Origin: a virus
Lineage: Duplodnaviria > Heunggongvirae > Uroviricota > Caudoviricetes
Length of the DNA: 10,252 nt
Virus record (IMG/VR): IMGVR_UViG_2778261533_000005
Location: 1-10,252 of that record
Strand: one strand, 5' to 3'
In this document: piece after piece, positions 1 through 10,252 of the stretch
How the letters are laid out: every line of letters starts with the position of its first letter
Position numbering within the stretch: position 1 is the first letter of the stretch
Notes under the pieces: model-generated
Database searches by the model: none
Told to the model about the DNA's origin: nothing
Seen by the model: only the letters and a program-made list of their open reading frames with translations
Position numbers and translations under genes: made by a program

Positions 1-390
1 TTACTCTTTTTTCTCCGTATCTACATCGGGTTCATCAGCAAATAGCTTGCCCTGCATCCGATCCAGTTCTTCTTTTCTTACCCGCTTAACCACGCTGTAG
101 ACCCACTGAAGCGAAACACCAAATTTGCGGGCCAGTTCATGGTGGTTACGTCCGTTAAACCCCCTGAAGATTTCCCGGTCGCGCTGACTGACCTTCCATA
201 CCATGCCCATCGGGAAATAAACGTTTTGCCCGCCCCAGACCTGCATCATGCGGTTCGCGACGGCCTGACCAATCTGGTCGGCAATTGCGGGCTCAATATC
301 AATAATCTCGCGAACGGTCTCAGAGGTATGCTGTGCCAGTTCCACCAGGAGTTCCGGCCCTTTACTTCGAAACTGATTCAGGTCGCTCAT
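1..390 (-). CDS. mor: Mor-family transcriptional activator (Mu middle operon regulator-like), 129 aa, complete
   Basis: ATG at 390..388 and TAA at 3..1. The translation has a GGQNVYFPMG motif and a C-terminal FNGRN..ELARKFGVS...VY..VKR helix-turn-helix-like region, recalled as typical of Mu Mor/C activators. Sits directly downstream of, and overlaps, the gemA-like gene as in Mu. Confidence 0.75.
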   Translation of the reverse strand: MSDLNQFRSKGPELLVELAQHTSETVREIIDIEPAIADQIGQAVANRMMQVWGGQNVYFPMGMVWKVSQRDREIFRGFNGRNHHELARKFGVSLQWVYSVVKRVRKEELDRMQGKLFADEPDVDTEKKE

Positions 391-814
391 GTTTTACTCC
401 CGCAGCTCTGCGTTGCCACTTCTTCAGTTTCTCAATAACACTGCTTGCCTGTTCAGTATTGAGCCAGCGCAGGGCGCTGATGCCCGTTTCCCGCTTGATC
501 CACCGCGCTAATGCATTTTCTGAACGGTCACGAACAATGCCGGCAGCAGCCATTTCAAGCCATAGCGCACGGATTTTCCTGGATTGCGGATGGTTATCCA
601 GCGGTAAACCGGAGCTGGCTTTTCCTGCAGGCCTAACGCGAAAGCCTTTCCTTTTCATGGATTCCAGCACGCAGTTTAGTTGTGTGGTATCCATTCCTTT
701 GGTTGAGGCTTTACCGGTCAGCCCCTGTAACATCTGGCGGTAGGTGTCTTCATCCATACCCAGTTCATTACGGGCAATATGAATGAGCTGGATAAGACGT
801 TGTTTAGTCATCAT
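362..814 (-). CDS. gemA: GemA-like regulatory protein (Mu gp16 / DUF1018 family)
   Basis: ORF track gives 362..853. I prefer the tandem ATG ATG at 814..809 because a GAAGGAG Shine-Dalgarno lies about 6 nt upstream and the start overlaps the stop of the upstream small ORF. N-terminal LIQLIHIARNELGMDEDTYRQML..TGK...M....L..VLE.MKRKGF matches the pattern I recall for Mu GemA. Its 3' end overlaps the mor start. Confidence 0.75.
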   Translation of the reverse strand: MMTKQRLIQLIHIARNELGMDEDTYRQMLQGLTGKASTKGMDTTQLNCVLESMKRKGFRVRPAGKASSGLPLDNHPQSRKIRALWLEMAAAGIVRDRSENALARWIKRETGISALRWLNTEQASSVIEKLKKWQRRAAGVKHERPESVSK

Positions 815-1019
815 CGTTGCTCCTTCTGCCTGCATCACCGATATAATCGACATATAAAGGAAGTGCCACAGGCCAGCACAGGAACATCACTGACCAGCTA
901 ATCCAGTAACCGGCACCACTGTAACGTGAATAAAACCCTGAACGGCGGTGCAGTTCAGCAGTACACCAACCGACAAAACAATACCAGAACAGGGCACATA
1001 CAACAGATTCAGTCGTCAT
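804..1019 (-). CDS. small hypothetical membrane protein (about 71 aa, two hydrophobic segments), acidic C-terminus
   Basis: ATG at 1019..1017 inside the longer ORF-track frame 804..1175. Translation MTTESVVCALFWYCFVGWCTAEL...YWISWSVMFLCWPVALPLYV has two predicted hydrophobic helices. Stop TAA at 806..804 overlaps the gemA start codons (ATGATGACTAA). Start choice is uncertain. Confidence 0.4.
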   Translation of the reverse strand: MTTESVVCALFWYCFVGWCTAELHRRSGFYSRYSGAGYWISWSVMFLCWPVALPLYVDYIGDAGRRSNDDD

Positions 1020-1239
1020 TCTGAATATCCCCCCAACTGATATGAATATTACGGGCAGCAATGACAGGGTCTTTATTCCACCATGCACCTGACATGTATT
1101 TTTCAACCTGTTCGCGTCCGGCAATAACACCAATTGTGATCCCCGGCCTGACGTTCTTAAAAAAGGCGCGGGCAAAAAGGTATCTGGCAGATATTCGGCA
1201 GGCTTTTAATTTCCGGCTGTTACCTGATAACGTAATCAT
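1009..1239 (-). CDS. hypothetical small phage protein (76 aa)
   Basis: ATG at 1239..1237 overlaps the stop of the upstream 119-aa ORF (ATGA), and its TGA at 1011..1009 lies 8 nt inside the next ORF. Operon-style coupling is the only support; no family recognised. Confidence 0.4.
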   Translation of the reverse strand: MITLSGNSRKLKACRISARYLFARAFFKNVRPGITIGVIAGREQVEKYMSGAWWNKDPVIAARNIHISWGDIQNDD

Positions 1240-1595
1240 CTGGCCTCCAGTTTCTGCTGTTCCCGCCCACTGACCGGTCGGTGCAGTCTGACGTTCTGCC
1301 CTTCTCGAAACCCCGCATAGCGCGAGGCGTCGCCATTGCGGCTTCTTCCCGGTTTACGCGCCCTGGTGGTTTGCGTCTGCGGGTATTTATGTTCCAGCCA
1401 CTGCTGCATCAGTTCACGTTCGTCATCGGTCAGGGCGAAGGACTGTATTTCACTGATAACGGCCAGCACCCAGCCTTCAGCAAACTGGTCTCCACGGCTG
1501 GTGCGGGTGGTGGTTTTTATTCTTTTGTTCTGTGCACTGATATACTGCTGACGCGCCTTTTTCAGCTGCCGGAGCTGTATCGGGTGCTGTTCCAT
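1236..1595 (-). CDS. hypothetical phage early-region protein (119 aa), first gene of the minus-strand operon in this window
   Basis: ATG at 1595..1593 and TGA at 1238..1236 overlapping the next start. The translation is basic and helical-looking with no low-complexity runs. No family recognised. Confidence 0.45.
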   Translation of the reverse strand: MEQHPIQLRQLKKARQQYISAQNKRIKTTTRTSRGDQFAEGWVLAVISEIQSFALTDDERELMQQWLEHKYPQTQTTRARKPGRSRNGDASRYAGFREGQNVRLHRPVSGREQQKLEAR

Positions 1596-1724
1596 CGCCT
1601 TCCGGGGTGGCGCAGTTCGTCCGTAACGGCGTCAACTATGCGAAACAGGCGCAGTCTGTACTCCAGACCACTATCAGTGCCGTTCGGGTGGCGCAGAAAA
1701 TGAAGGGTAACCGGCGTCAGCGAT

Positions 1725-2822
1725 GTGCTGACGCCGGTATTCACTCTGTGGTATCTGCAGAAAAACATCACCTCTGATATCGCGCCTTATGTCACCCGTG
1801 TGGTCTGGAGCGATAACATCAAAAATGAGTCCGATACCATTGAGGTGGAGCTGGACGACACCGATGGCCGCTGGCTGGATAAGTGGTATCCGGGCAAGGG
1901 TGACACGCTGACGCTGAAAATGGGTTATCAGGGCGAGAAACTGCTGTCCTGCGGTACATTCTCAATAGACGAGATCGAAGTGAGTTCGCCCGCGTCCGTT
2001 GTCGCTATCCGTGGGGTGGCCACCTCGGTTAACAGTGCTCTGCGGACTAAATCCAGCCGTGGTTTTGAGAACACCACGCTGGCAGCTGTTGCGGGGCGGA
2101 TTGCCAGAAAGCACCGGCTGAAACTGGTGGGCAGCATTGAGTCCATCAGAATCGACCGGGTGACCCAGTATGCTGAAACCGACGTGGGTTTTCTGCGCCG
2201 GCTGGCCAGCGAGTATGGTTATGCAGTGAAAGTGGTCAGTGACCAGTTGATTTTTTCTCATCTGGCCACACTGCGCAGTCAGGAGCCGGTCAGGCAGTTA
2301 AAACCGCAGGATGTGGCCTGCTTTTCCCTGCGTGACACCATCAACCGGGTCTATAAATCTGCAAAGGTAAAACACCAGAAAAGCAGCAGTAAAAAACTGA
2401 TCGTCTACGAAGCTGATGGTGGTACCCGTGAAAGCGACAAAAAGCTCAAAGGCGGTAAGGTTACCAGCGCTGACTCACTTAAAGTTAACAGCCGCGTCAG
2501 CGACCCGGACAGTGCCCGGATTAAAGCGGATTCAGCACTGGCCAGACATAACGAATACCAGCAGAACGGCTCCCTGACGCTGACGGGAACGCCTCAACTG
2601 ACAGCAGGCAACAAAATTGAACTGGTGGGCTTTGGACAGTTATCCGGTCCATGGCTGATAATCACTGCCCGCCATGCGTTTGAGCGTAACAGCGGCTACA
2701 CCACAGAGCTGGAAGTGGCACGGGGGCCAGTCACAAGAGGGAAAAAACAAAAAACTCAGAAACTCACGGTTTATCACCCGGATGGCAGTACATCGACGGT
2801 GATTAAGGAGAAGAAAAAATGA
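1725..2822 (+). CDS. baseplate hub protein (P2 gpD / Mu gp44-like, 'late control D' family); start uncertain, possibly 5'-truncated
   Basis: 365-aa ORF whose first in-frame start is GTG at 1725. It contains an ELDDTDG motif and the overall length expected of P2 gpD-type hubs. Its TGA at 2820..2822 overlaps the gpV ATG (ATGA). The nearest in-frame upstream stop is at 1701..1703. Confidence 0.7.
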   Translation: MLTPVFTLWYLQKNITSDIAPYVTRVVWSDNIKNESDTIEVELDDTDGRWLDKWYPGKGDTLTLKMGYQGEKLLSCGTFSIDEIEVSSPASVVAIRGVATSVNSALRTKSSRGFENTTLAAVAGRIARKHRLKLVGSIESIRIDRVTQYAETDVGFLRRLASEYGYAVKVVSDQLIFSHLATLRSQEPVRQLKPQDVACFSLRDTINRVYKSAKVKHQKSSSKKLIVYEADGGTRESDKKLKGGKVTSADSLKVNSRVSDPDSARIKADSALARHNEYQQNGSLTLTGTPQLTAGNKIELVGFGQLSGPWLIITARHAFERNSGYTTELEVARGPVTRGKKQKTQKLTVYHPDGSTSTVIKEKKK

Positions 2823-3346
2823 CTGGTGTCACCCGTCAGATCGGTACGGTCAGTGCCGTTGATGCCGACAGGGTTCAGGCCCGCGTTCGTCTGCCTGAAT
2901 GCGATAATCTGCGCACAAACTGGCTTAACGTGCTACAGCGCAATACCCAGGATAACAAGGATTACTGGCTCCCTGACGTGGGGGAGCAGGTTGAGGTGCT
3001 GCTCGATGCCAACGGCGAGGATGGTGTTATTCTGGGCGCGGTGTACTCAGACGTCGATAAACCGCCGTTCAGTGATAAAAACGTCCGGGGTACGAAATAC
3101 GCTGATGGCGCGGAGTTCAGTTATAACCGCGCGACCCATACGCTGACGGTCAGAGGAGGTATTGAGCGTATCGTGGTGGAGGTTGCCGCTGATATCTCTC
3201 TCAAAGGGAAAAACCTCGACCTCACGGGAGTTACCACGATCAACGGCCCCGCGACACTCAATGGTGATCTGGAAATCAACGGAAGCGCCCATGCAACGGG
3301 TAACATATTTGCTGATGGTCAGAACTCTAATCACCATTCCCATTGA
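2819..3346 (+). CDS. baseplate spike / assembly protein V (P2 gpV, Mu gp45-like)
   Basis: ATG at 2819 preceded by AAGGAG at 2805..2810. 175 aa with an N-terminal OB-fold-like region and a C-terminal repetitive beta-rich region (TLTV..., LDLTGVTTINGPATLNGDLEINGSAHATGNI) typical of gpV spikes. Position between hub and gpW fits. Confidence 0.85.
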   Translation: MTGVTRQIGTVSAVDADRVQARVRLPECDNLRTNWLNVLQRNTQDNKDYWLPDVGEQVEVLLDANGEDGVILGAVYSDVDKPPFSDKNVRGTKYADGAEFSYNRATHTLTVRGGIERIVVEVAADISLKGKNLDLTGVTTINGPATLNGDLEINGSAHATGNIFADGQNSNHHSH

Positions 3347-3402
3347 ACCTTCTTAAACGCCTTTAATATCGGCGCTTACTTCCCGGGGGCAATACTGCCT
3401 CC

Positions 3403-3750
3403 ATGAAAACGACCTCAGTATTCTGGCAACCAGCTCTGCAGGCTCCCGGCGAAATCGTCCGGGGGCTGGATGATATCCGGCAGTCCATCCAGATCATCCT
3501 GCGGACTCCCCGCGGCAGCGACCCGCATCGCCCGGAGTTCGGCAGCAATCTGCACCTTTATATCGACTGGCCTGTCGACCGGGCCATTCCGCATGTGGTT
3601 CGCGAATCCGTCGATGCCATCAGGCGCTGGGAACCCCGCTGCCAGCTTATGTCGGTTAAACCCGCCGTCGACGGCGAACATCTTACGCTCCGGGTGAGCT
3701 GGAAAGGCTCAGACGGACAACCCCGTACTCAGGAACTGCTATGGCGCTGA
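3403..3750 (+). CDS. baseplate wedge protein W (P2 gpW / T4 gp25-like)
   Basis: ATG at 3403. 115 aa, the size and position expected for gpW/gp25 family, with the IRQSIQIIL.T..G....P.FGS.L motif characteristic of that fold. Stop TGA 3748..3750 overlaps the gpJ start. Confidence 0.85.
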   Translation: MKTTSVFWQPALQAPGEIVRGLDDIRQSIQIILRTPRGSDPHRPEFGSNLHLYIDWPVDRAIPHVVRESVDAIRRWEPRCQLMSVKPAVDGEHLTLRVSWKGSDGQPRTQELLWR

Positions 3751-4844
3751 CAGAACCCGATTTTATTGAACGCGATGCCGATAAAATCACGGCAGAAATG
3801 ATTGCGAAGTATGAAGCGGATACCGGAAAAACGCTGTACCCGGCACAGGCTGAACGTCTGCTGATTGACCTGTGGGCCTATCGCGAAATGCTGGTCAGGG
3901 TGGCAGTACAGGAGGCGGCGAAGCAGAATCTGGTCGCTTTTTCCCGTGAGCCGATGATTGATTACCTCGGTGAACTGGTCGGTGTATACCGCCTTGCCGC
4001 GCAGCCTGCCACCACCACACTTCAGTTCTCTGTGGATGAGGCACTGGCCATTGATGTGCTGATCCCGGCAGGCACCCGCGTCAGCGCTTCCGACAGTATT
4101 ATTTTTGCCACCGATACAGACGTGGTGCTGAAGGCCGGATTGCTGCTGGTCAATGTCACGGCCACCTGTACCGAGCCGGGTACCGCTGGCAACGGCTGGC
4201 AACCGGCGCAGGTCAGTCAGTTACTCGATGAGATTGATAACATTGACCTGCTGGTGACCAATCTGACGGCCAGCTCTGGCGGTTCAGAGCAGGAAGACGA
4301 TGACCGGCTCCGGGAGCGTATCAGGCTGGCCCCGGAGTCATTCACCAATGCCGGAAGCCGTGGTGCATACCGTTTTCATGCTATGGGGGCGCATCCCGGC
4401 ATTGTCGACGTTGCTGTTCTTTCTCCCGTTCCCGGCACTGTCGAGCTGTATCCGCTGCTCAGCACTGGTCTGCCGGACAGCAGTATCCTCACTCTGGTAG
4501 AGAGTTTCTGTTCTGACGAAAAAGTCAGACCACTCACTGATACCGTGCGGGCTAAAACACCTGTTCAGGTGGATTACACCATTGAAGCCAGGATTACGAT
4601 CTATCGTGATCAGGATGCAAGGTTGGTAAAGGACAACGCTAACAGCGCCATACAGAACTGGGTGGCATCCCGTACCGCCACGCTGGGGCGCGATATTGTT
4701 CCCAGCCAGATTATCAGCGTGTTGTCCGTTTCCGGGGTGTACCAGGTCGAACTGGTGACACCGGCACTGAGGGTGGTGGCAGAAAACGAATGGGCAAACT
4801 GTACGGCGATCACTCTTAACATGACCGGGGTGTCCGATGGCTGA
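3741..4844 (+). CDS. baseplate protein J (P2 gpJ / Mu gp47 / T4 gp6-like)
   Basis: ATG at 3741 with AGGAA upstream. 367 aa, located between gpW and gpI; the sequence character is typical of Baseplate_J family. Stop overlaps the gpI ATG at 4837. Confidence 0.85.
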   Translation: MALTEPDFIERDADKITAEMIAKYEADTGKTLYPAQAERLLIDLWAYREMLVRVAVQEAAKQNLVAFSREPMIDYLGELVGVYRLAAQPATTTLQFSVDEALAIDVLIPAGTRVSASDSIIFATDTDVVLKAGLLLVNVTATCTEPGTAGNGWQPAQVSQLLDEIDNIDLLVTNLTASSGGSEQEDDDRLRERIRLAPESFTNAGSRGAYRFHAMGAHPGIVDVAVLSPVPGTVELYPLLSTGLPDSSILTLVESFCSDEKVRPLTDTVRAKTPVQVDYTIEARITIYRDQDARLVKDNANSAIQNWVASRTATLGRDIVPSQIISVLSVSGVYQVELVTPALRVVAENEWANCTAITLNMTGVSDG

Positions 4845-5415
4845 GGTGCTACAACTCCCGCCACCGCTTGAGGGTGATATCAGTCTCAGAACGCTGGGAA
4901 GACTGGCCGGACGGCTGGATAACATCGACCTGAGCGTACTGATGGTCGGTCTCGTCGATATTGTCGACAGTTCCGCGCTGCCATGGCTTGGCGAGCAGTT
5001 CTCGCTGTTCGGCGATGGCTGGGAACTGGCGGAATCGGACGATGTACGCCGCATGCTTATCAAATCCGCTATCGAGCTACACCGCTATAAAGGAACACCG
5101 TGGTCAATCCGGGAAATTATCCGCCGTTTTGGCTTCGGCGAAGTGGATCTGATTGAAGGTACGGGGCAGATTGGCTATGACGGCAGACACACGTACAACG
5201 GGCTTTTCGTCCATGGTGATGCACAAGCCTGGGCAGTCTATCGCGTCATCCTTCAACAACCCATCACTAACGATCAGGCGGCGCTGTTACGTCAGACGCT
5301 TGCTGCCTTTGCTCCGGCTCGCTGTCATCTGGCAAGTCTGGAATATCAGTCTGTCGCCATTCGATACAACAGTACTACCCGTTATGACGGTAGTTACAAC
5401 CACGGGAGCAGTTAA
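4837..5415 (+). CDS. tail/baseplate protein I (P2 gpI / Mu gp48-like, e14 YmfQ-like)
   Basis: ATG at 4837 overlapping the gpJ stop. 192 aa, immediately upstream of the tail-fibre gene as gpI is in P2 and Mu. Confidence 0.8.
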   Translation: MAEVLQLPPPLEGDISLRTLGRLAGRLDNIDLSVLMVGLVDIVDSSALPWLGEQFSLFGDGWELAESDDVRRMLIKSAIELHRYKGTPWSIREIIRRFGFGEVDLIEGTGQIGYDGRHTYNGLFVHGDAQAWAVYRVILQQPITNDQAALLRQTLAAFAPARCHLASLEYQSVAIRYNSTTRYDGSYNHGSS

Positions 5416-5417
5416 TT

Positions 5418-6371
5418 ATGGCAAATCTACCCGAAACCCCGCAGTGGGAAAGCGGCATCTACCAGATTGAGGTCTCTGACCCCGTTCTGGGCGGACCTGA
5501 CGGAATTTCTAACCGCCAGGCTAAACAACTGGCCAGCCGAACGTCATACCTCAAACAGAAGGTCGAAAAAAGCGGAACAGACCTGGCTGCACATATCGCG
5601 GCAGTTGACCCGCATACCCAGTACGCGACGAAAGCCAGTCCGACATTCACCGGCACACCAACAGCACCTACACCTGCAAATGGTGATAACAGCAAAAAGC
5701 TGGCGACGACGGAGTTTGTGGCCAAAGCACTTGCGGCACTTGCAGGCAGCGCCCCTGAGACACTGGATACGCTTAAAGAGCTGGCTGACGCTCTCGGTAA
5801 TGATCCAAACTTTGCGACTACGGTACTGAACAAGCTGGCGGAAAAGCTGGCTAAAGACCAGAACGGCGCAGATATTCCTGAGCCTGCGCTGTTTGTCAAA
5901 AACCTTGGTTTGGGGGAAGGCTCTGCACTACCTGTTGGTGTGCCTGTTCCATGGCCGTCAGCCACACCGCCAACAGGGTGGCTGAAATGTAACGGTGCAG
6001 CATTTTCTTCTGAAATGTACCCCAATCTGGCAAAGGCTTACCCCACGAATAAATTACCGGATTTACGGGGCGAATTTATCCGTGGCTGGGATGACGGACG
6101 AGGTATTGATGCAGGACGAGAGATACTTTCATTTCAGGAAGGCACTATCGTCTCCGGTTTTGATGATAATGATACTGGGGATATCAGTTCACTTAGCTCA
6201 ACACAATACGGATTTGGTGACACTCTAACCTCTAATCAATGGGGGGCCATAAATGGCAAAAAGTGGATATTTGATGCATCCAGTAAAGGTGCACAAAAAT
6301 ATGACTGGTGGGCTTATGTATCAGCTCGTCCGCGTAATATTGCATTTAATTACATCGTAAGAGCGGCATAG
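5418..6371 (+). CDS. tail fibre protein: constant N-terminal part (about residues 1-163) fused to the currently expressed variable C-terminal cassette 1
   Basis: ATG at 5418 with GGGAG at 5404..5408. The N-terminal region contains the side-tail-fibre motif SPTFTGTPTAPTP...ATTEFV...LDTLKELADALGNDPNF. The C-terminal region from about residue 164 is a tail-collar-type domain (PVGVPVPWP....GWLKCNGAAFS...YP.L...LPDLRGEFIRGWD) ending in ARPRNIAFNYIVRAA. The crossover site lies in-frame at 5893..5918. Confidence 0.9.
   Translation: MANLPETPQWESGIYQIEVSDPVLGGPDGISNRQAKQLASRTSYLKQKVEKSGTDLAAHIAAVDPHTQYATKASPTFTGTPTAPTPANGDNSKKLATTEFVAKALAALAGSAPETLDTLKELADALGNDPNFATTVLNKLAEKLAKDQNGADIPEPALFVKNLGLGEGSALPVGVPVPWPSATPPTGWLKCNGAAFSSEMYPNLAKAYPTNKLPDLRGEFIRGWDDGRGIDAGREILSFQEGTIVSGFDDNDTGDISSLSSTQYGFGDTLTSNQWGAINGKKWIFDASSKGAQKYDWWAYVSARPRNIAFNYIVRAA
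5893..5918 (+). other. 26-bp recombination crossover site 1 (gix/hix/pix-like), at the constant/variable boundary of the expressed fibre gene
   Basis: TTGTCAAAAACC-TT-GGTTTGGGGGAA: two 12-bp half-sites matching 8 of 12 positions as an inverted repeat around a TT core. The left half closely resembles the TT.TC.AAAACC left half I recall for Hin/Gin sites. The 14 bp from the core onward recur at the 5' end of every cassette. Confidence 0.7.
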
Positions 6372-6390
6372 AAACGTTGGTTTGGGGGAA
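6365..6390 (+). other. crossover site 2 (direct orientation), 5' end of cassette 2
   Basis: GGCATAGAAACG-TT-GGTTTGGGGGAA. The right half and TT core are identical to site 1. The left half is supplied by the conserved 3' end of cassette 1 and contains its TAG stop. Confidence 0.65.
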
Positions 6391-6915
6391 GGCTCGGCGC
6401 TGCCCGTTGGTGTCCCCGTTCCGTGGCCCTCAGCCACACTGCCAGCAGGGTGGCTGAAATGTAACGGCGCAGCATTTTCTTCTGAAATGTACCCCAATCT
6501 GGCAAAGGCTTATCCTACAAATAAACTACCGGATCTACGGGGTGAGTTTATCCGTGGCTGGGATGACGGACGTGGCGTGGATGCGGGGCGAGCCTTGCTA
6601 AGTCTTCAGGATGACTCTTTTGAAGCGCACAGGCATGAGTCATTTTTTTATGCGGGTATTTCACGCAATGAAATCCCATTAAAAAATCTTCCAAGTTCAG
6701 ACGAGATGCTGACTTTAAGTTCCACAACTAATGCCTTGTCACCGGACGGTATTGATGCCACCAATTCGTTAATTGGTAATGACGATTACAACTGTCTTAT
6801 CGAAGGGAATAAAAATAACAAACGAACAGCAACGGGTCTAAGTACCAGTATTGTCGGCGCAGCAGAAACCCGCCCCCGTAACATTGCGTTTAATTACATC
6901 GTAAGGGCGGCATAG
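6382..6915 (+). CDS. silent alternative tail-fibre C-terminal cassette 2 (collar-type domain, no own start or RBS)
   Basis: The frame is open from the crossover core (6379) to TAG at 6913..6915. The track's M is the TTG inside the site. The N-terminal 70 aa are near-identical to cassette 1, followed by a unique about 90-aa core and the conserved ETRPRNIAFNYIVRAA end. It would be in frame with the constant region if joined at the core. Confidence 0.75.
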   Translation: MGEGSALPVGVPVPWPSATLPAGWLKCNGAAFSSEMYPNLAKAYPTNKLPDLRGEFIRGWDDGRGVDAGRALLSLQDDSFEAHRHESFFYAGISRNEIPLKNLPSSDEMLTLSSTTNALSPDGIDATNSLIGNDDYNCLIEGNKNNKRTATGLSTSIVGAAETRPRNIAFNYIVRAA

Positions 6916-6934
6916 AAACGTTGGTTTGGGGGAA
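6909..6934 (+). other. crossover site 3 (direct orientation), 5' end of cassette 3
   Basis: GGCATAGAAACG-TT-GGTTTGGGGGAA, identical to site 2. Confidence 0.65.
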
Positions 6935-7393
6935 GGCTCGGCGCTGCCCGTTGGTGTGCCTGTTCCGTGGCCCTCAGCCACACCACCAACGGGCTGGCTG
7001 AAATGTAACGGTGCAGCATTTTCTTCTGAAATGTATCCCAAACTGGCAAAAGCTTACCCCACCAATAAATTACCGGATTTACGGGGTGAATTTATTCGTG
7101 GCTGGGATGATGGGCGGGGAATTGATAATAGACGCAACCTACTGTCTGCACAGTCTGACACTATTCAGAATATAGTTGGCACTTTTGGACGAACTCAGCT
7201 TTTTAAAGATGCTTTAAATTCAGGGCCATTTAGTCAAACTGACTCTATATTATCAGTAGGCTTGCAACCAACTGAGAGTATTGAAGGATATGGCGCCTCT
7301 GTATGGACATTCGACGCCTCTCGCTCAGTTCGCACAGCATCTGAAACACGTCCTCGTAACATTGCGTTTAATTACATCGTAAGGGCGGCATAG
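6926..7393 (+). CDS. silent alternative tail-fibre C-terminal cassette 3
   Basis: Same architecture: conserved collar N-terminus, unique core, ETRPRNIAFNYIVRAA, TAG at 7391..7393. No ATG or Shine-Dalgarno. Confidence 0.75.
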   Translation: MGEGSALPVGVPVPWPSATPPTGWLKCNGAAFSSEMYPKLAKAYPTNKLPDLRGEFIRGWDDGRGIDNRRNLLSAQSDTIQNIVGTFGRTQLFKDALNSGPFSQTDSILSVGLQPTESIEGYGASVWTFDASRSVRTASETRPRNIAFNYIVRAA

Positions 7394-7412
7394 AAACGTT
7401 GGTTTGGGGGAA
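7387..7412 (+). other. crossover site 4 (direct orientation), 5' end of cassette 4
   Basis: GGCATAGAAACG-TT-GGTTTGGGGGAA. Confidence 0.65.
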
Positions 7413-7994
7413 GGCTCTGCACTGCCTGTTGGTGTGCCTGTTCCATGGCCGTCAGCCACACCGCCAGAGGGATGGCTGAAATGCAACGGCGCAGCATTTT
7501 CTTCTGAAATGTACCCCAATCTGGCACAGGCTTACCCCACGAATAAATTACCGGATTTACGCGGTGAATTTATCCGTGGCTGGGATGACGGACGTGGCGT
7601 GGATGCGTGGCGAACATTACTGAGTGCTCAGGATTTTGCGTTTGAAGATCATGCTCTGGGGCTACCTACCAATCAGGGATATGCAGGTATTGAGAAAGGT
7701 AGCACTGAAAATGATGTTTATGCCGCTTTCTCTGATGGCATGCACTATACAGGGAATGTAACCAGTAGCGGTCAATGGGATGATTATTCTCAGTCAAAAA
7801 TTTATATCCGTAGTGATGGTAAGCCTGTCGGAAATAATATTGAGTTAGCTAACTCAAGTGAGGCTTTGCGTTCTTCTTTGCGTACTTATAGAGCCAGTAC
7901 AGGATGGTATAACCCAGGACTAAACAAACCTAAAACAGCTACAGAAACACGTCCGCGCAACGTTGCTTTTAATTACATCGTAAGAGCCGCATGA
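7404..7994 (+). CDS. silent alternative tail-fibre C-terminal cassette 4 (largest, 196 codons)
   Basis: Conserved collar N-terminus, unique about 115-aa core, ETRPRNVAFNYIVRAA, TGA at 7992..7994. Confidence 0.75.
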   Translation: MGEGSALPVGVPVPWPSATPPEGWLKCNGAAFSSEMYPNLAQAYPTNKLPDLRGEFIRGWDDGRGVDAWRTLLSAQDFAFEDHALGLPTNQGYAGIEKGSTENDVYAAFSDGMHYTGNVTSSGQWDDYSQSKIYIRSDGKPVGNNIELANSSEALRSSLRTYRASTGWYNPGLNKPKTATETRPRNVAFNYIVRAA

Positions 7995-8013
7995 AAACGT
8001 TGGTTTGGGGGAA
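7988..8013 (+). other. crossover site 5 (direct orientation), 5' end of cassette 5
   Basis: CGCATGAAAACG-TT-GGTTTGGGGGAA. The left half is a variant because cassette 4 ends with TGA rather than TAG. Confidence 0.65.
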
Positions 8014-8481
8014 GGCTCTGCACTGCCCGTTGGTGTGCCTGTTCCGTGGCCCTCAGCCACACCGCCAACAGGGTGGCTGAAATGTAACGGTGCAGCATTT
8101 TCTTCTGAAATGTACCCCAAACTGGCAAAGGCTTATCCTACAAATAAACTACCGGATCTACGGGGTGAGTTTATCCGTGGCTGGGATGACGGGCGAGGGA
8201 TTGATGCAGGACGTGCTTTATTAAGCTTTCAAACTGGGATGCTGGAAAAACACCGCCATATTGTTGTAGCTAACGATGGGTATGACACAAAGGATGAATG
8301 GGAGTTGGCCACAATTTTCAAAAAAACATATACACAAGGACGGGGACTTGATGCCACAAGTACAGGCGGGAGTCTGATCCCATCACCGACACTTCATTCA
8401 CGAGGGAGTATTGGTAACACTGGTGGTAGTGAAACTCGCCCCCGCAATATCGCATTTAACTATATCGTGAGGGCGGCTTAA
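8005..8481 (+). CDS. silent alternative tail-fibre C-terminal cassette 5
   Basis: Conserved collar N-terminus, unique core, ETRPRNIAFNYIVRAA, TAA at 8479..8481. No crossover site follows it; the tfa gene converges 6 bp downstream. Confidence 0.75.
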   Translation: MGEGSALPVGVPVPWPSATPPTGWLKCNGAAFSSEMYPKLAKAYPTNKLPDLRGEFIRGWDDGRGIDAGRALLSFQTGMLEKHRHIVVANDGYDTKDEWELATIFKKTYTQGRGLDATSTGGSLIPSPTLHSRGSIGNTGGSETRPRNIAFNYIVRAA

Positions 8482-8487
8482 TTATAC

Positions 8488-9105
8488 TCAACTGGCTGCT
8501 GCCAGAGGCATTTCCGGCCAGTTGATATCCGGTGCAGTGCTGATGTCAGTCGCATTAAGCGTATCTATGAAATCAAGCACGGCGTTTAGTTTTTCCGTCT
8601 CCTGGGGCGTCAATCGGCGTCCGGCTCGTAGTTTGAGATTAATAAGCTCAACAGATGCCATTGCCTGTTCCTCAAGTTGCTGACGATGCGCTCCGGCAGC
8701 TTCCAGTTCTGCTGCGTGCTGTCGTCTCGTATCTGTCACCCAAATCTCACCATCCCAGACATCATAGATAGTAGCTGGCTGTTTCACCGTCGTATCAGGA
8801 GGGTAATCTCCCGGTTGTGTGATTTGCACAGCGTTACCATTCTCTGTGCTGTAAACCGTTTCGCCTCTGTGGTCTGGAACATATTTCCAGATGTTCTGGT
8901 CGGTATCACGACAGACAGCGAAGCCGGGGCGTTTTTCTGGTGGCGCGTCAATGCATGAGTGAGCCGGAATTCCAACACCATAAGCGAGATACTCAACAGT
9001 GGCAGAGAGATATTCACGGTTTTCAGCATCGTAGTTATAAACGGTAATATCGCCTGCAGTTATAGCGATACCATTCTGATCAAGTACTGCAGCAGCATTA
9101 TTCAT
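8488..9105 (-). CDS. tail fibre assembly protein (Tfa / Mu U-like chaperone)
   Basis: ATG at 9105..9103 overlaps the TAA of the inverted cassette (TAATG). 205 aa. The C-terminus DTLNATDISTAPDINWPEMP resembles the D.TSTAQDIEWPALP end I recall for E. coli TfaE-type chaperones. Confidence 0.85.
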   Translation of the reverse strand: MNNAAAVLDQNGIAITAGDITVYNYDAENREYLSATVEYLAYGVGIPAHSCIDAPPEKRPGFAVCRDTDQNIWKYVPDHRGETVYSTENGNAVQITQPGDYPPDTTVKQPATIYDVWDGEIWVTDTRRQHAAELEAAGAHRQQLEEQAMASVELINLKLRAGRRLTPQETEKLNAVLDFIDTLNATDISTAPDINWPEMPLAAAS

Positions 9106-9608
9106 TAAGTAGCCCTTACAATATAGTTAAACGCAATATTACGGGGGCGGTTTTCCGTTCCTGTATTCCCTCCGTTGGCACCTAATCTATAAACACCACG
9201 AGTGCCAATAGCACGTAGTGAAGATGGAACTTTTACACCTGACTCATCTGTTTTAACAATCCCGCCATCACCGTATGTAGCCAGTATACCAGGGTTTGTT
9301 CCTGCACGGGTGTTGTTTGCGGCAAGCCCTTCACCAGTCCATAACTCCATATAATGAATATGATCTATAACCGAATGTGATTGTGCATTAAGCAAGGAAC
9401 GCCCTGAATCAATTCCCCGCCCATCATCCCAGCCACGAATAAACTCACCCCGTAAATCCGGTAATTTATTGGTGGGGTAAGCCTTTGCCAGTTTGGGGTA
9501 CATTTCAGAAGAAAATGCTGCGCCGTTACATTTCAGCCACCCTGTTGGCGGTGTGGCTGAGGGCCACGGAACAGGCACACCAACGGGTAGTGCAGAGCCT
9601 TCCCCCAA
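9105..9608 (-). CDS. silent alternative tail-fibre C-terminal cassette M in inverted orientation, followed by tfa
   Basis: Minus-strand frame open from crossover site M to TAA at 9107..9105. N-terminus near-identical to the other cassettes (GEGSALPVGVPVPWPSATPPTGWLKCNGAAFSSEMYPKLAKAYPTNKLPDLRGEFIRGWDDGRGID), unique core, ends ENRPRNIAFNYIVRAT. No own start codon. Confidence 0.8.
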   Translation of the reverse strand: MGEGSALPVGVPVPWPSATPPTGWLKCNGAAFSSEMYPKLAKAYPTNKLPDLRGEFIRGWDDGRGIDSGRSLLNAQSHSVIDHIHYMELWTGEGLAANNTRAGTNPGILATYGDGGIVKTDESGVKVPSSLRAIGTRGVYRLGANGGNTGTENRPRNIAFNYIVRAT

Positions 9609-9625
9609 ACCAACGTTTTCGTCTT
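9600..9625 (-). other. crossover site M (inverted relative to sites 1-5)
   Basis: Plus strand reads TTCCCCCAAACC-AA-CGTTTTCGTCTT, the reverse complement of AAGACGAAAACG-TT-GGTTTGGGGGAA. It is the only site with its asymmetric core inverted, so it is the only direct inversion partner for site 1 in this configuration. Confidence 0.7.
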
Positions 9626-9679
9626 AACTCCCACCTATACCAGCTATGTATTTTTAACAAAACAAAGAGGATATTTTTC

Positions 9680-10252
9680 ATGCAAATTGGCTACATTCGT
9701 GTGTCAACAAATGACCAGAATACAGATTTACAACGAAACGCACTGAACTGCGCAGGATGTGAACTGATTTTTGAGGATAAAATCAGCGGAACAAAGTCAG
9801 CCCGACCGGGATTGAAAAAGCTGCTCAGAACGTTATCAGAAGGAGATACGCTCGTTGTCTGGAAGCTGGACAGGCTGGGCAGAAGCATGAAACACCTCAT
9901 CACTCTTATTGAGGAACTGCGGGAAAAAGGGGTTAACTTCCGTAGTCTTACAGACAGCATTGATACGTCAACACCCATGGGACGTTTCTTTTTTCACGTC
10001 ATGGGGGCTTTAGCGGAAATGGAGCGTGAATTAATAGTTGAACGAACACTGGCCGGACTTGAAGCAGCACGTGCACAGGGGCGTATTGGTGGACGTCGTC
10101 CGAAACTGACAAAAGAGCAACATGAACAAATAGCAAGGCTGATCAAAAATGGCTATAGCAGGAAACAGTTGGCAATTATTTACGATATCGGTATATCGAC
10201 GATTTATCGTTATCACCCTGTAGAGGAACTTCAAACTCAAGCTGATTTGTAA
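9680..10252 (+). CDS. site-specific DNA invertase, serine recombinase of the Gin/Pin/Cin/Hin family
   Basis: ATG at 9680 with AAGAGGA at 9664..9670. N-terminal IGYIRVSTNDQNTDLQRNAL holds the catalytic-serine motif. Long identical stretches to the Gin/Pin sequences as I recall them (GDTLVVWKLDRLGRSMKHLI, SLTDSIDTS.PMGRFFFHVMGALAEMERELI.ERT.AGL.AAR), plus a C-terminal helix-turn-helix. TAA at 10250..10252. The ORF-track start at 9485 is an upstream in-frame extension, rejected. Confidence 0.95.
   Translation: MQIGYIRVSTNDQNTDLQRNALNCAGCELIFEDKISGTKSARPGLKKLLRTLSEGDTLVVWKLDRLGRSMKHLITLIEELREKGVNFRSLTDSIDTSTPMGRFFFHVMGALAEMERELIVERTLAGLEAARAQGRIGGRRPKLTKEQHEQIARLIKNGYSRKQLAIIYDIGISTIYRYHPVEELQTQADL

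Follow-up and report, generated by a model that had tools for sequence, protein, structure and literature searches.

In phage Mu, mor, gemA and the early genes share the direction of the late genes, the late promoter P_P precedes the baseplate-fibre operon, and the target duplication is 5 bp. The genome of BcepMu (AY539836) begins with gp01 (Mor) and gp02 (GemA) on the minus strand and runs on to gp09 (transposase), also on the minus strand, followed by the lysis, head and tail genes; its late block on the plus strand includes gp45 (U), gp46 (X), gp47 (D), V, W, J, I and H. An intact 38,313-bp prophage in the otsA gene of E. coli M-17 (NZ_CP068394.1) has the same layout. BcepMu and the E. coli Bcepmuvirus-type prophages (that of M-17; phage PhiKM, PQ738613) share a leftward early operon that ends with gemA and mor at the left end, and BcepMu-type relatives share the P2-like order U-X-D-V-W-J-I-H on the other strand. 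The orientation of the early operon was read from the GenBank entry for BcepMu and from the annotation of M-17, and the duplication length from two insertions; neither is stated for BcepMu in the open-access literature examined. A different background is provided by the defective ('grounded') prophages of E. coli, for example the Sakai pool, in which internal deletions strip replication, lysis and morphogenesis functions and leave intact genes scattered (PMC2669165; PMC6379469).

The window, by which we mean the whole stretch of 10,252 nucleotides analysed here, very probably represents, on the evidence of its sequence, almost all of a 10,492-bp remnant left by a BcepMu-like transposable prophage (Bcepmuvirus type). 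Its features are collected in Table 1. The proteins encoded in the window are collinear with those of BcepMu and 40-62% identical to them, and nucleotide identity to the M-17 prophage is 97-100%. Compared with its BcepMu-type relatives, the element is without 27.6 kb of the interior, including most of U and all of X, and its hub gene is truncated at the 5' end; compared with M-17, the window has one extra fibre cassette. Like the prophages of the Sakai pool, it has lost its interior functions and is fixed at one chromosomal site; unlike the lambdoid members of that pool, it derives from a transposable BcepMu-type phage and has kept both transposon ends. It is a derivative of a BcepMu-type member rather than a functional member, and thus an ordinary decayed prophage of a known family and no new kind of element.

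Table 1. Features of the window and of the deletion junctions
Feature	Position	Strand	Remarks
mor	1-390	-	129-aa activator of late transcription (Mor/C family); matches PF08765 over the full length (Pfam, 1e-42); closes the leftward early operon; 53% identical (aa) to BcepMu gp01
gemA (Mu gp16 family)	362-814 (open frame to 853)	-	150 aa; Pfam PF06252, 1.3e-40
Two small overlapping early ORFs	804-1019; 1009-1239	-	71 aa; 76 aa; gene calls on carrier contig L003
Fusion ORF	1236-1595	-	119 aa; start of the minus-strand operon; probable product of deletion 1
J1 crossover	1567-1568		27,008-bp deletion; perfect shared TG, imperfect 7-of-8 microhomology CTGcCGGA
gpU relic	1567-1712	+	146 bp; codons 141-190 of 294
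J2	1708-1712		561-bp deletion; microhomology TAACC
Hub gene, 5'-truncated (P2 gpD / BcepMu gp47 family)	1713-2822 (ORF 1725-2822)	+	Pfam Phage_GPD
Spike gene V (gpV family)	2819-3346	+	Intact; Pfam Phage_base_V; start overlaps hub stop
Candidate activator-dependent late promoter and leader	3351-3402	+	Conserved block before W
Wedge gene W	3403-3750	+	Intact; Pfam GPW_gp25
Wedge gene J	3741-4844	+	Intact; Pfam Baseplate_J
Wedge gene I	4837-5415	+	Intact; Pfam Tail_P2_I
Tail-fibre gene	5418-6371 (fibre region 5418-9618)		ORFs; Pfam Collar, Caudo_TAP
Fibre-assembly gene	8488-9105	-	
Serine invertase (Gin/Cin/Min type)	9680-10252	+	190 aa; Pfam Resolvase, 1.7e-51, and HTH_7

Termini, chromosomal site and distribution

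An NCBI contig of 192 kb (carrier contig L003) contains a sequence identical to the window; in it, the 10,492-bp element lies inside ycaQ with intact TGAT...ATCA ends. The termini, TGATTAGAC...GCGCATCA, are of the Mu type (TG...CA), and are situated 162 bp outside window position 1 on the left and 78 bp past the window end on the right. They are bordered by GCAAGC, a 6-bp target duplication that maps to one position in K-12 ycaQ, with lpxK-ycaQ' on one side and 'ycaQ-ycaR-kdsB-...-mukFEB on the other. The M-17 prophage in otsA likewise has TGAT...ATCA ends, near-identical to those of the window element, and a 6-bp duplication (TCCAGC); the terminal 80 bp at the right end are apparently the same in both, and the left ends are related.

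Gene calls on the source contig revealed no head, sheath, tube or tape-measure genes in the window or its flanks, as the initial annotation had noted for the space between the regulators and the hub. No ORF for an rve-type DDE transposase, a MuB/ExeA-like ATPase or a repressor was present in the window or the element, and an Rfam scan of the whole window matched no family. The flanks, in which the annotation had named a complete, conventionally ordered prophage as evidence against its reading, are host chromosome on both sides. These flanks, the Mu-type ends, the target duplication and the 27 kb of extra DNA that intact relatives carry between the joined points bear out its suggestion of a degenerate prophage retaining a switchable fibre module. 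Its alternative, an unusual element organization, is needless, the layout being native to the BcepMu lineage apart from the deletions.

The element resembles Mu in its Mor and GemA families, in a transposable lifestyle with TG...CA ends, in an invertible fibre segment with a Gin-type invertase and, as with P_P of Mu, in a candidate late promoter before the baseplate-fibre genes. It differs from Mu in its divergent early genes, its 6-bp duplication, its six crossover sites (Mu has two) and its baseplate genes, which belong to P2-type Pfam families (GpU, X, GPD, Tail_P2_I) as annotated in BcepMu. Assignment to Mu sensu stricto (Muvirus) was rejected on the basis of the divergence, which is native, the duplication and the baseplate families. 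An R-type tailocin or contractile injection particle was also rejected, as sheath, tube, tape-measure and lysis genes are absent from the element and its flanks.

The fusion ORF was found on seven contigs from independent assemblies (NCBI and Logan); GCA_002512315.1 is one carrier. Three carrier loci were examined: the ycaQ site is shown by L003 and L004, L004 is identical to L003 outside the fibre array, and the short contig L005 matches L003 at 100% identity throughout its extent. The fibre region is repeat-rich and L004 ends inside it, as might be expected of an assembly chimera joining two parts of a complete prophage. However, both junctions lie in unique sequence outside the repeats, and the fusion ORF recurs on all seven contigs, one of them 192 kb long with host flanks and a precise 6-bp duplication. 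We regard the probability of a chimera as practically negligible. The junction is rare. No place in 5,426 complete E. coli genomes has both junction sides together (megablast of 1-3400 and 1440-1860), and the exact 30-mer spanning J1 is absent from JGI metagenomes, GTDB species representatives and IMG/VR. Related prophages are present in 643 of the 5,426 genomes.

Two deletion junctions between the regulators and the hub

The junctions were read by blastn and by base-by-base comparison with the M-17 prophage locus. Window positions 32-1573 correspond to 3558-5099 of the M-17 locus (97.1% identity), 1567-1712 to 32101-32246 (100%) and 1708-6118 to 32803-37213 (99.6%). The breakpoint alignment proposed at the outset thus located two crossovers, J1 and J2. 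Deleted lengths were measured against this single intact prophage; its early region is just 97% identical, and ancestral lengths may differ slightly.

The DNA lost at J1 comprises the 5' half of the DUF2786 gene, the transposase, the MuB-like ATPase, the repressor/operator region, a methylase and the lysis genes and, on the late side, the terminase, portal, head, sheath, tube and tape-measure genes and the 5' part of gpU. The transposase, MuB/ExeA-like ATPase and repressor typical of BcepMu relatives all fall within these 27,008 bp. Missing at J2 are the 3' end of gpU, the whole of gpX and the opening 40 nt of the hub gene with its ATG. Of the P2-like tail block there remain D (truncated), V, W, J, I and H, together with the relic of U; X, sheath, tube and tape measure are absent. 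J2 is also visible against IMG/VR, in which 71 loci were matched: among the matches listed, 29 of 30 alignments begin exactly at window position 1708 and the other is cut by a contig end, while the loci themselves run on for about 220-480 nt upstream.

The ORF that begins the minus-strand operon is a composite. Its 8-9 N-terminal codons, approximately, are the antisense of the gpU relic, and the remainder, aligned with the M-17 protein, represents residues ~116/117-227 of a DUF2786/DUF7168 early protein that is 227 aa long when intact; the N-terminal half of that protein is gone. The Pfam DUF7168 match in the fusion ORF covers only profile positions 71-139 of 140, in contrast to a full match in the intact protein. 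The gpU relic comes from a gene at 31679-32563 of the M-17 locus (Pfam Phage_P2_GpU, 9e-38). As the apparently intergenic DNA is 100% identical to part of this gene, the space separating the two divergent ORFs consists, on this comparison, almost wholly of former gpU coding sequence and is no regulatory region. The other early genes are those of the intact phage: the gemA product is 45% identical to BcepMu gp02, and the ORFs at 804-1019 and 1009-1239 have same-length genes in M-17. The small ORFs scanned (804-1175 and 1009-1239) had no match in Pfam.

The initial annotation, with Mu as comparator, treated the divergence of mor/gemA from the hub as anomalous. Its measurement was accurate: the operon starts at 1595 and the gap to the hub GTG is 129 bp (1596-1724), close to the 130 bp reported. 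The orientation itself, leftward over 1-1595 with mor and gemA at the left end and the late genes opposite, is native to both BcepMu and M-17. Since the native arrangement in this family has early and late genes diverging, an interior deletion alone places mor/gemA back-to-back with the hub, and no inversion is needed. Mu is the wrong gene-order yardstick for E. coli 'Mu-like' prophages of the BcepMu lineage.

We are highly confident that the odd neighbourhood of regulators and baseplate genes was left behind by two deletions, of 27 kb and 561 bp, within a prophage in E. coli ycaQ. A distinct element architecture, with the regulators brought beside the hub by inversion or by a natively unusual gene order, would agree with the co-directional mor/gemA of Mu, against which the window looks inverted. 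This is extremely unlikely: BcepMu and the intact E. coli relatives already carry mor/gemA on the opposite strand, the window is collinear with M-17 in the same orientation on both sides of each junction, and truncated gene pieces lie at both junctions. The proposal of a deletion or inversion junction near 1596-1724 was therefore right as to deletion and wrong as to inversion. It was partly right as to place, since J2 lies within that interval, whereas J1 is 28 nt outside it, within the 119-aa ORF; it had expected one junction, and there are two.

In the sequence of events that we propose for the two-deletion scar, a BcepMu-type phage would have transposed into ycaQ, generating Mu-type ends and the duplicated GCAAGC. 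The interior would then have been lost by two illegitimate deletions at the level of microhomology, in either order or in one complex event. Deletion 1 (27,008 bp) would have fused the middle of the leftward DUF2786/DUF7168 early gene to the middle of the rightward gpU, and deletion 2 (561 bp) would have taken the remaining 3' part of gpU, the gpX gene and 40 nt from the 5' end of the hub gene. The surviving genes are without frameshift or nonsense changes. This state of preservation fits recent deletion, though selection for retention may also be compatible with it.

The invertible fibre array

The fibre gene has alternative C-terminal cassettes, four direct and one inverted (9105-9608, minus strand). 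Six gix-like crossover cores, AAAC(C/G)TTGGTTT, are situated at the cassette boundaries, at 5900, 6372, 6916, 7394 and 7995 in direct and at 9607 in inverted orientation. In all, the core pattern had seven matches where 0.38 was expected; the match at 9286 is outside the series. A serine invertase with Resolvase and HTH_7 domains, together with sites in inverted orientation around fibre cassettes, is the arrangement of the Gin/Min type. Min (plasmid p15B) and Gin, Cin and Pin similarly have a serine invertase beside a fibre gene whose C-terminal part is exchangeable among cassettes at cores of the AAACC-NN-GGTTT type; in the window this system is a side feature of the main finding. With its invertase gene intact, the array may still undergo inversion of its fibre cassettes. 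L003 and L004 differ only in the fibre array, where the cassette substituted in L004, a contig ending in repeats, is only 96.4% identical to that of the window; this difference is compatible alike with inversion, gene conversion or an assembly path through repeats.

The truncated hub gene and expected expression

The window hub corresponds to residues 20-384 of the 384-aa intact hub of M-17, with 100% identity. The GTG start and slightly short N-terminus noticed in the initial annotation therefore reflect the loss of exactly 19 residues. The sole available start, GTG 1725, is Val20 of the intact protein; it has no Shine-Dalgarno sequence, and an in-frame TGA is present upstream at 1701-1703. 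A shared GTG start among homologues, named earlier as evidence against a junction, was not the rule: in 64 of the 70 IMG/VR matches the hub starts MAE(I/V/M)..., 19 codons upstream. In 68 IMG/VR loci a near full-length gpX lies directly before the hub, and the hub ATG of relatives overlaps gpX. The only informative solved relative of the hub, the R2 pyocin protein chain 6u5h_C (E 2.5e-17), aligns its residues 20-323 with intact-hub residues 40-352. Its N-terminus extrapolates to about hub residue 21, and the conserved core probably does not include the lost segment; the absence of a start codon and of coupling is in any case decisive for the hub. The first ~16 hub residues are variable among relatives, and TGVSDVL is conserved. 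For annotation, ORF 1725-2822 is best described as a 5'-truncated, pseudogene-like remnant, and the 119-aa ORF as a fusion made by deletion.

A sigma-70 promoter and terminator scan of 1-2900 found two promoter-like sites against 1.8 expected, with none near 1400-1800 on either strand, so that a promoter in the gap is unsupported. The mor/gemA operon would be without its early promoter. The hub no longer has its ATG, is translationally uncoupled from gpX and, by our reading, is also without its upstream late promoter. With these signals gone and V dependent on the hub, both hub and V are probably silent. V itself has an M-17 homologue of equal length and is inside a gap-free blastn alignment of 4,411 bp with 99.6% identity. 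W, J and I are also 99.6% identical to M-17 at the nucleotide level, and their products are 54-62% identical to BcepMu gp49-51.

The block before W consists of TCTTAAAC-G-CCTTTAATATC, with TAATAT at 3364-3369. It is followed by a 7-bp hairpin, GGGGGCA-ATAC-TGCCTCC (3385-3402), which abuts the W ATG. The block is kept across 40 distinct V-W gaps (76 IMG/VR loci), with small variations in the most divergent group, and is retained even in a few loci with an unrelated upstream V end; a late-promoter-like block is also present in the V-W gap of BcepMu. This conservation makes the block a candidate activator-dependent late promoter, and 3351-3375 would be the Mor-dependent part. Expression of W, J, I and the fibre genes would then depend on the supply of a Mor-type activator.

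Such retention raises the question of whether the relic is kept because it is functional, either as a naturally occurring module of the mini-Mu or satellite kind or as a store of genes for fibres and baseplate wedges. Both transposon ends are intact, the retained late genes other than the hub are full-length and 99.6% identical to the intact phage, and the promoter-like block has been retained along with mor, the six-site fibre shufflon and the invertase; the related prophages of E. coli would be potential helpers. A co-resident or superinfecting BcepMu-like phage could in that case trans-activate, mobilize, co-package or recombine with the relic, which could serve as a host-range reservoir of alternative fibres or as an assembly-interfering decoy. 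We nevertheless consider a functional module very unlikely. The relic is very rare and is seen at one chromosomal site only, the junctions cut genes at random-looking points, so that what is left of gpU is non-functional, one ORF is a fusion and the hub is without a start, and the operator/enhancer region and transposase are gone; the near-identity to intact phages is equally explained by recent deletion. As a decayed prophage, the element is predicted to be incapable of transposition, replication, lysis and particle formation. The main value of the case lies in correct annotation, with little importance beyond, and in a base-resolved example of a transposable prophage disarmed by internal deletions, with both ends and the fibre-switching module still in place.

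In support of the candidate late promoter, the motif MTTWAAWATC had three matches in the 41.5-kb M-17 locus against 0.41 expected, all on the plus strand and in late intergenic gaps. A conserved late-promoter-like block with a leader hairpin before several late operons may aid annotation and expression studies of this common prophage family.

Gene order and the deletion junctions

Megablast against annotated collections reached prophages with P2-type tail annotation in complete E. coli genomes (643 of 5,426), as well as phage PhiKM, which is classified in Bcepmuvirus; Mu was not reached. In BcepMu, Mor (gp01) and GemA (gp02) lie at the far left on the minus strand, in a leftward operon running on to the transposase gp09. 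The repressor region follows, and then plus-strand lysis, head and P2-like tail genes, the late strand ending U (gp45), X (gp46), D (gp47), V, W, J, I, H. Proteins encoded in the window are collinear with those of BcepMu, at 40-62% identity, and the intact 38,313-bp prophage of E. coli M-17, inserted in otsA with a 6-bp duplication (TCCAGC), has the BcepMu layout. The initial annotation had taken Mu as its reference and regarded the divergence of mor/gemA from the late genes as anomalous; opposite-strand mor and gemA are the norm in this family. The abnormal feature is only the proximity of the early operon to the hub ORF, which was correctly noted: the gap between the two ORFs is 129 bp. Five overlapping ORFs occupy the minus strand of 1-1595 (Table). 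Within them, 806-977 has no nucleotide match in PhiKM, yet is collinear with the M-17 prophage, a difference that is ordinary mosaicism of small early genes.

Table. Features of the window and of the loci compared with it
Feature	Position	Strand	Remarks
mor	1-390	minus	PF08765, 1e-42
gemA	362-814	minus	PF06252, 1.3e-40
Small ORF	804-1019	minus	
Small ORF	1009-1239	minus	
119-aa ORF	1236-1595	minus	DUF7168 match, partial
P2 gpD-type baseplate hub ORF, 365 aa	GTG at 1725	plus	
gpV, gpW, gpJ, gpI homologues	downstream of hub	plus	
Tail-fibre gene and extra C-terminal cassettes, fibre-assembly gene, serine invertase	5418-10252		
gix-like cores, AAAC(C/G)TTGGTTT	5900, 6372, 6916, 7394, 7995	plus	
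gix-like core	9607	inverted	
Aligned block 1	32-1573		M-17 locus 3558-5099, 97.1%
Aligned block 2	1567-1712		M-17 locus 32101-32246, 100%
Aligned block 3	1708-6118		M-17 locus 32803-37213, 99.6%
Non-coding regions with conserved block	3347-3402		M-17 locus (L006) 15332-15401, 28632-28703, 34446-34497; BcepMu (L008) 30769-30823
ycaQ parts flanking the element	810-1268, 11758-12540		source contig (L003) coordinates

The source contig was aligned to the M-17 prophage and the junctions were then inspected base by base. The alignment consists of three collinear blocks on the same strand, which refutes the inversion proposed as one origin of a junction near 1596-1724. The alternative proposal, a deletion junction in a degenerate prophage, is borne out by two junctions relative to M-17, by truncated genes and by host flanks. 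At the first junction (J1, 1567-1568) TG is common to both sides within an imperfect 7/8 microhomology, and 27,008 bp are deleted; at the second (J2, 1708-1712, TAACC) 561 bp are deleted. J1 interrupts an early gene encoding a 227-aa DUF2786/DUF7168 protein, whose intact M-17 version matches both Pfam domains in full. The 119-aa ORF is a fusion of about 9 antisense codons of gpU to residues ~116/117-227 of this protein. Since 1567-1712 represents codons 141-190 of a gpU-family gene (294 aa), the gap between the divergent ORFs is relic coding sequence. At J2 the remainder of gpU was lost together with the whole gpX gene and the initial 40 nt of the hub gene.

Insertion site and truncated hub

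Part of the 192-kb source contig (NCBI) matches the window at 100% identity. Comparison with K-12 revealed a 10,492-bp element inserted at a single point of ycaQ, with ends 5'-TGATTAGAC...GCGCATCA-3', a GCAAGC target duplication, and flanking host genes (lpxK at one end, ycaR-kdsB-...-mukFEB at the opposite end). The flanks therefore hold no surrounding complete prophage, and an assembly artefact is excluded. The element extends 162 bp beyond the window on the left and 78 bp beyond it on the right. In M-17, about 1.1 kb (L006 2410-3517) with ORFs of 162 and 633 bp separates the left end from mor; the absence of these two genes here, where the left end lies 162 bp before position 1, is consistent with the variable end cargo reported for BcepMu-like phages (PMC2920897).

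The junction is rare. None of the 5,426 complete genomes of E. coli has it, and the J1 30-mer was not found in JGI metagenomes, GTDB species representatives or IMG/VR. The fusion ORF is present on 7 contigs, and two carriers are identical across 14.7 kb, the fibre array excepted. The insertion splits ycaQ, which in K-12 encodes an interstrand DNA crosslink repair glycosylase, so carriers presumably lack YcaQ function.

The window hub ORF corresponds, with 100% identity, to residues 20-384 of the hub in M-17, where its GTG is an internal codon, that of Val20. Upstream, at 1701-1703, there is an in-frame TGA, and no Shine-Dalgarno-like sequence precedes the GTG when the sequence is read directly. 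The suspicion that the hub is short at its N-terminus was justified, as homologous hubs begin 19 codons earlier: 64 of 70 hub matches among IMG/VR relatives start MAE(I/V/M)..., and a near full-length gpX lies directly upstream at 68 IMG/VR loci. Among the IMG/VR alignments listed, homology to the window begins exactly at 1708 at every locus not cut by a contig end. The hub ATG overlaps the gpX end by 13 nt in M-17 and BcepMu, which suggests translational coupling. The window gene lacks both its start codon and the gpX coupling. Hub residue 40 aligns with residue 20 of R2 pyocin chain 6u5h_C, and the lost segment is probably outside the conserved core.

The element is a decayed BcepMu-type prophage, one more example of a well-known kind. 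A mini-Mu-like fibre module that could be activated in trans and mobilised is a most improbable reading: there is only one insertion site, the breakpoints run through genes and look random, and the transposase and operator region are lost.

Candidate late promoters

The first deletion took away the repressor/operator region, where transcription of the leftward early operon would begin; by analogy with Mu, mor and gemA would thereby have lost their promoter. No sigma-70-like site was found near the junctions. The 41.5-kb M-17 locus contains three copies (0.41 expected) of a conserved block, (C/A)TT(T/A)AA(A/T)ATC preceded by TCTTAA (overall TCTTAA-N-CTTTAA(A/T)ATC), each on the late strand in an intergenic gap. 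One copy precedes the holin gene, another precedes the tail-chaperone/tape-measure/U/X/D/V block, and the third lies between V and W. A variant precedes the head protease/scaffold genes. The V-W gap of BcepMu contains the same block, which is also kept in the V-W gaps of 76 IMG/VR loci (40 distinct gaps) and varies slightly in the most divergent group; at a few loci with the block the V gene end is unrelated sequence.

The block holds a TAATAT/TAAAAT hexamer without a -35 element, the pattern of the activator-dependent late promoters of Mu, and we therefore infer that the blocks are candidate Mor-type late promoters. In the V-W gap the block is followed by a hairpin directly against the W start codon; block and hairpin would form an activator-dependent late promoter with a structured leader. 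The only copy left in the window is at 3351-3375. The promoter of hub and V would have lain in the 27-kb deletion; W-J-I-fibre would keep theirs, but would depend on an activator whose own promoter is lost. This Mor-type reading is the best available answer to how the baseplate-fibre module might be expressed. In the holin leader, pairing across the Shine-Dalgarno looks possible by eye.

Fibre cassettes and invertase

The fibre region is an invertible tail-fibre system of several cassettes: it contains one expressed fibre gene, the assembly gene, the invertase and promoterless C-terminal fibre cassettes, four direct and one inverted. With six gix-like cores, the system is closer to Min of p15B, which has six sites, than to Gin of Mu, which has two. 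M-17 carries one cassette fewer. On a second contig carrying the same deletions (L004), positions 1-1169, compared with window 5369-8228, join a different cassette to the fibre gene's constant part. This cassette matches window 7404-7994 at 96.4% identity, and all 13 mismatches in the collinear part lie in 5924-6107. Inversion could account for the difference, as could gene conversion from another prophage or the path taken by the assembly through the repeats.

The 255-aa ORF at 9485-10252 was rejected as a mechanical artefact: it extends the 190-aa invertase upstream, beyond the true start at ATG 9680. The minus-strand ORFs 6321-6497, 6838-7041, 7325-7519 and 7920-8120 are likewise artefacts; the repeated 'MGYISEENAAPLHF...' ORFs arise where the 5' segment that the cassettes repeat is read in antisense.
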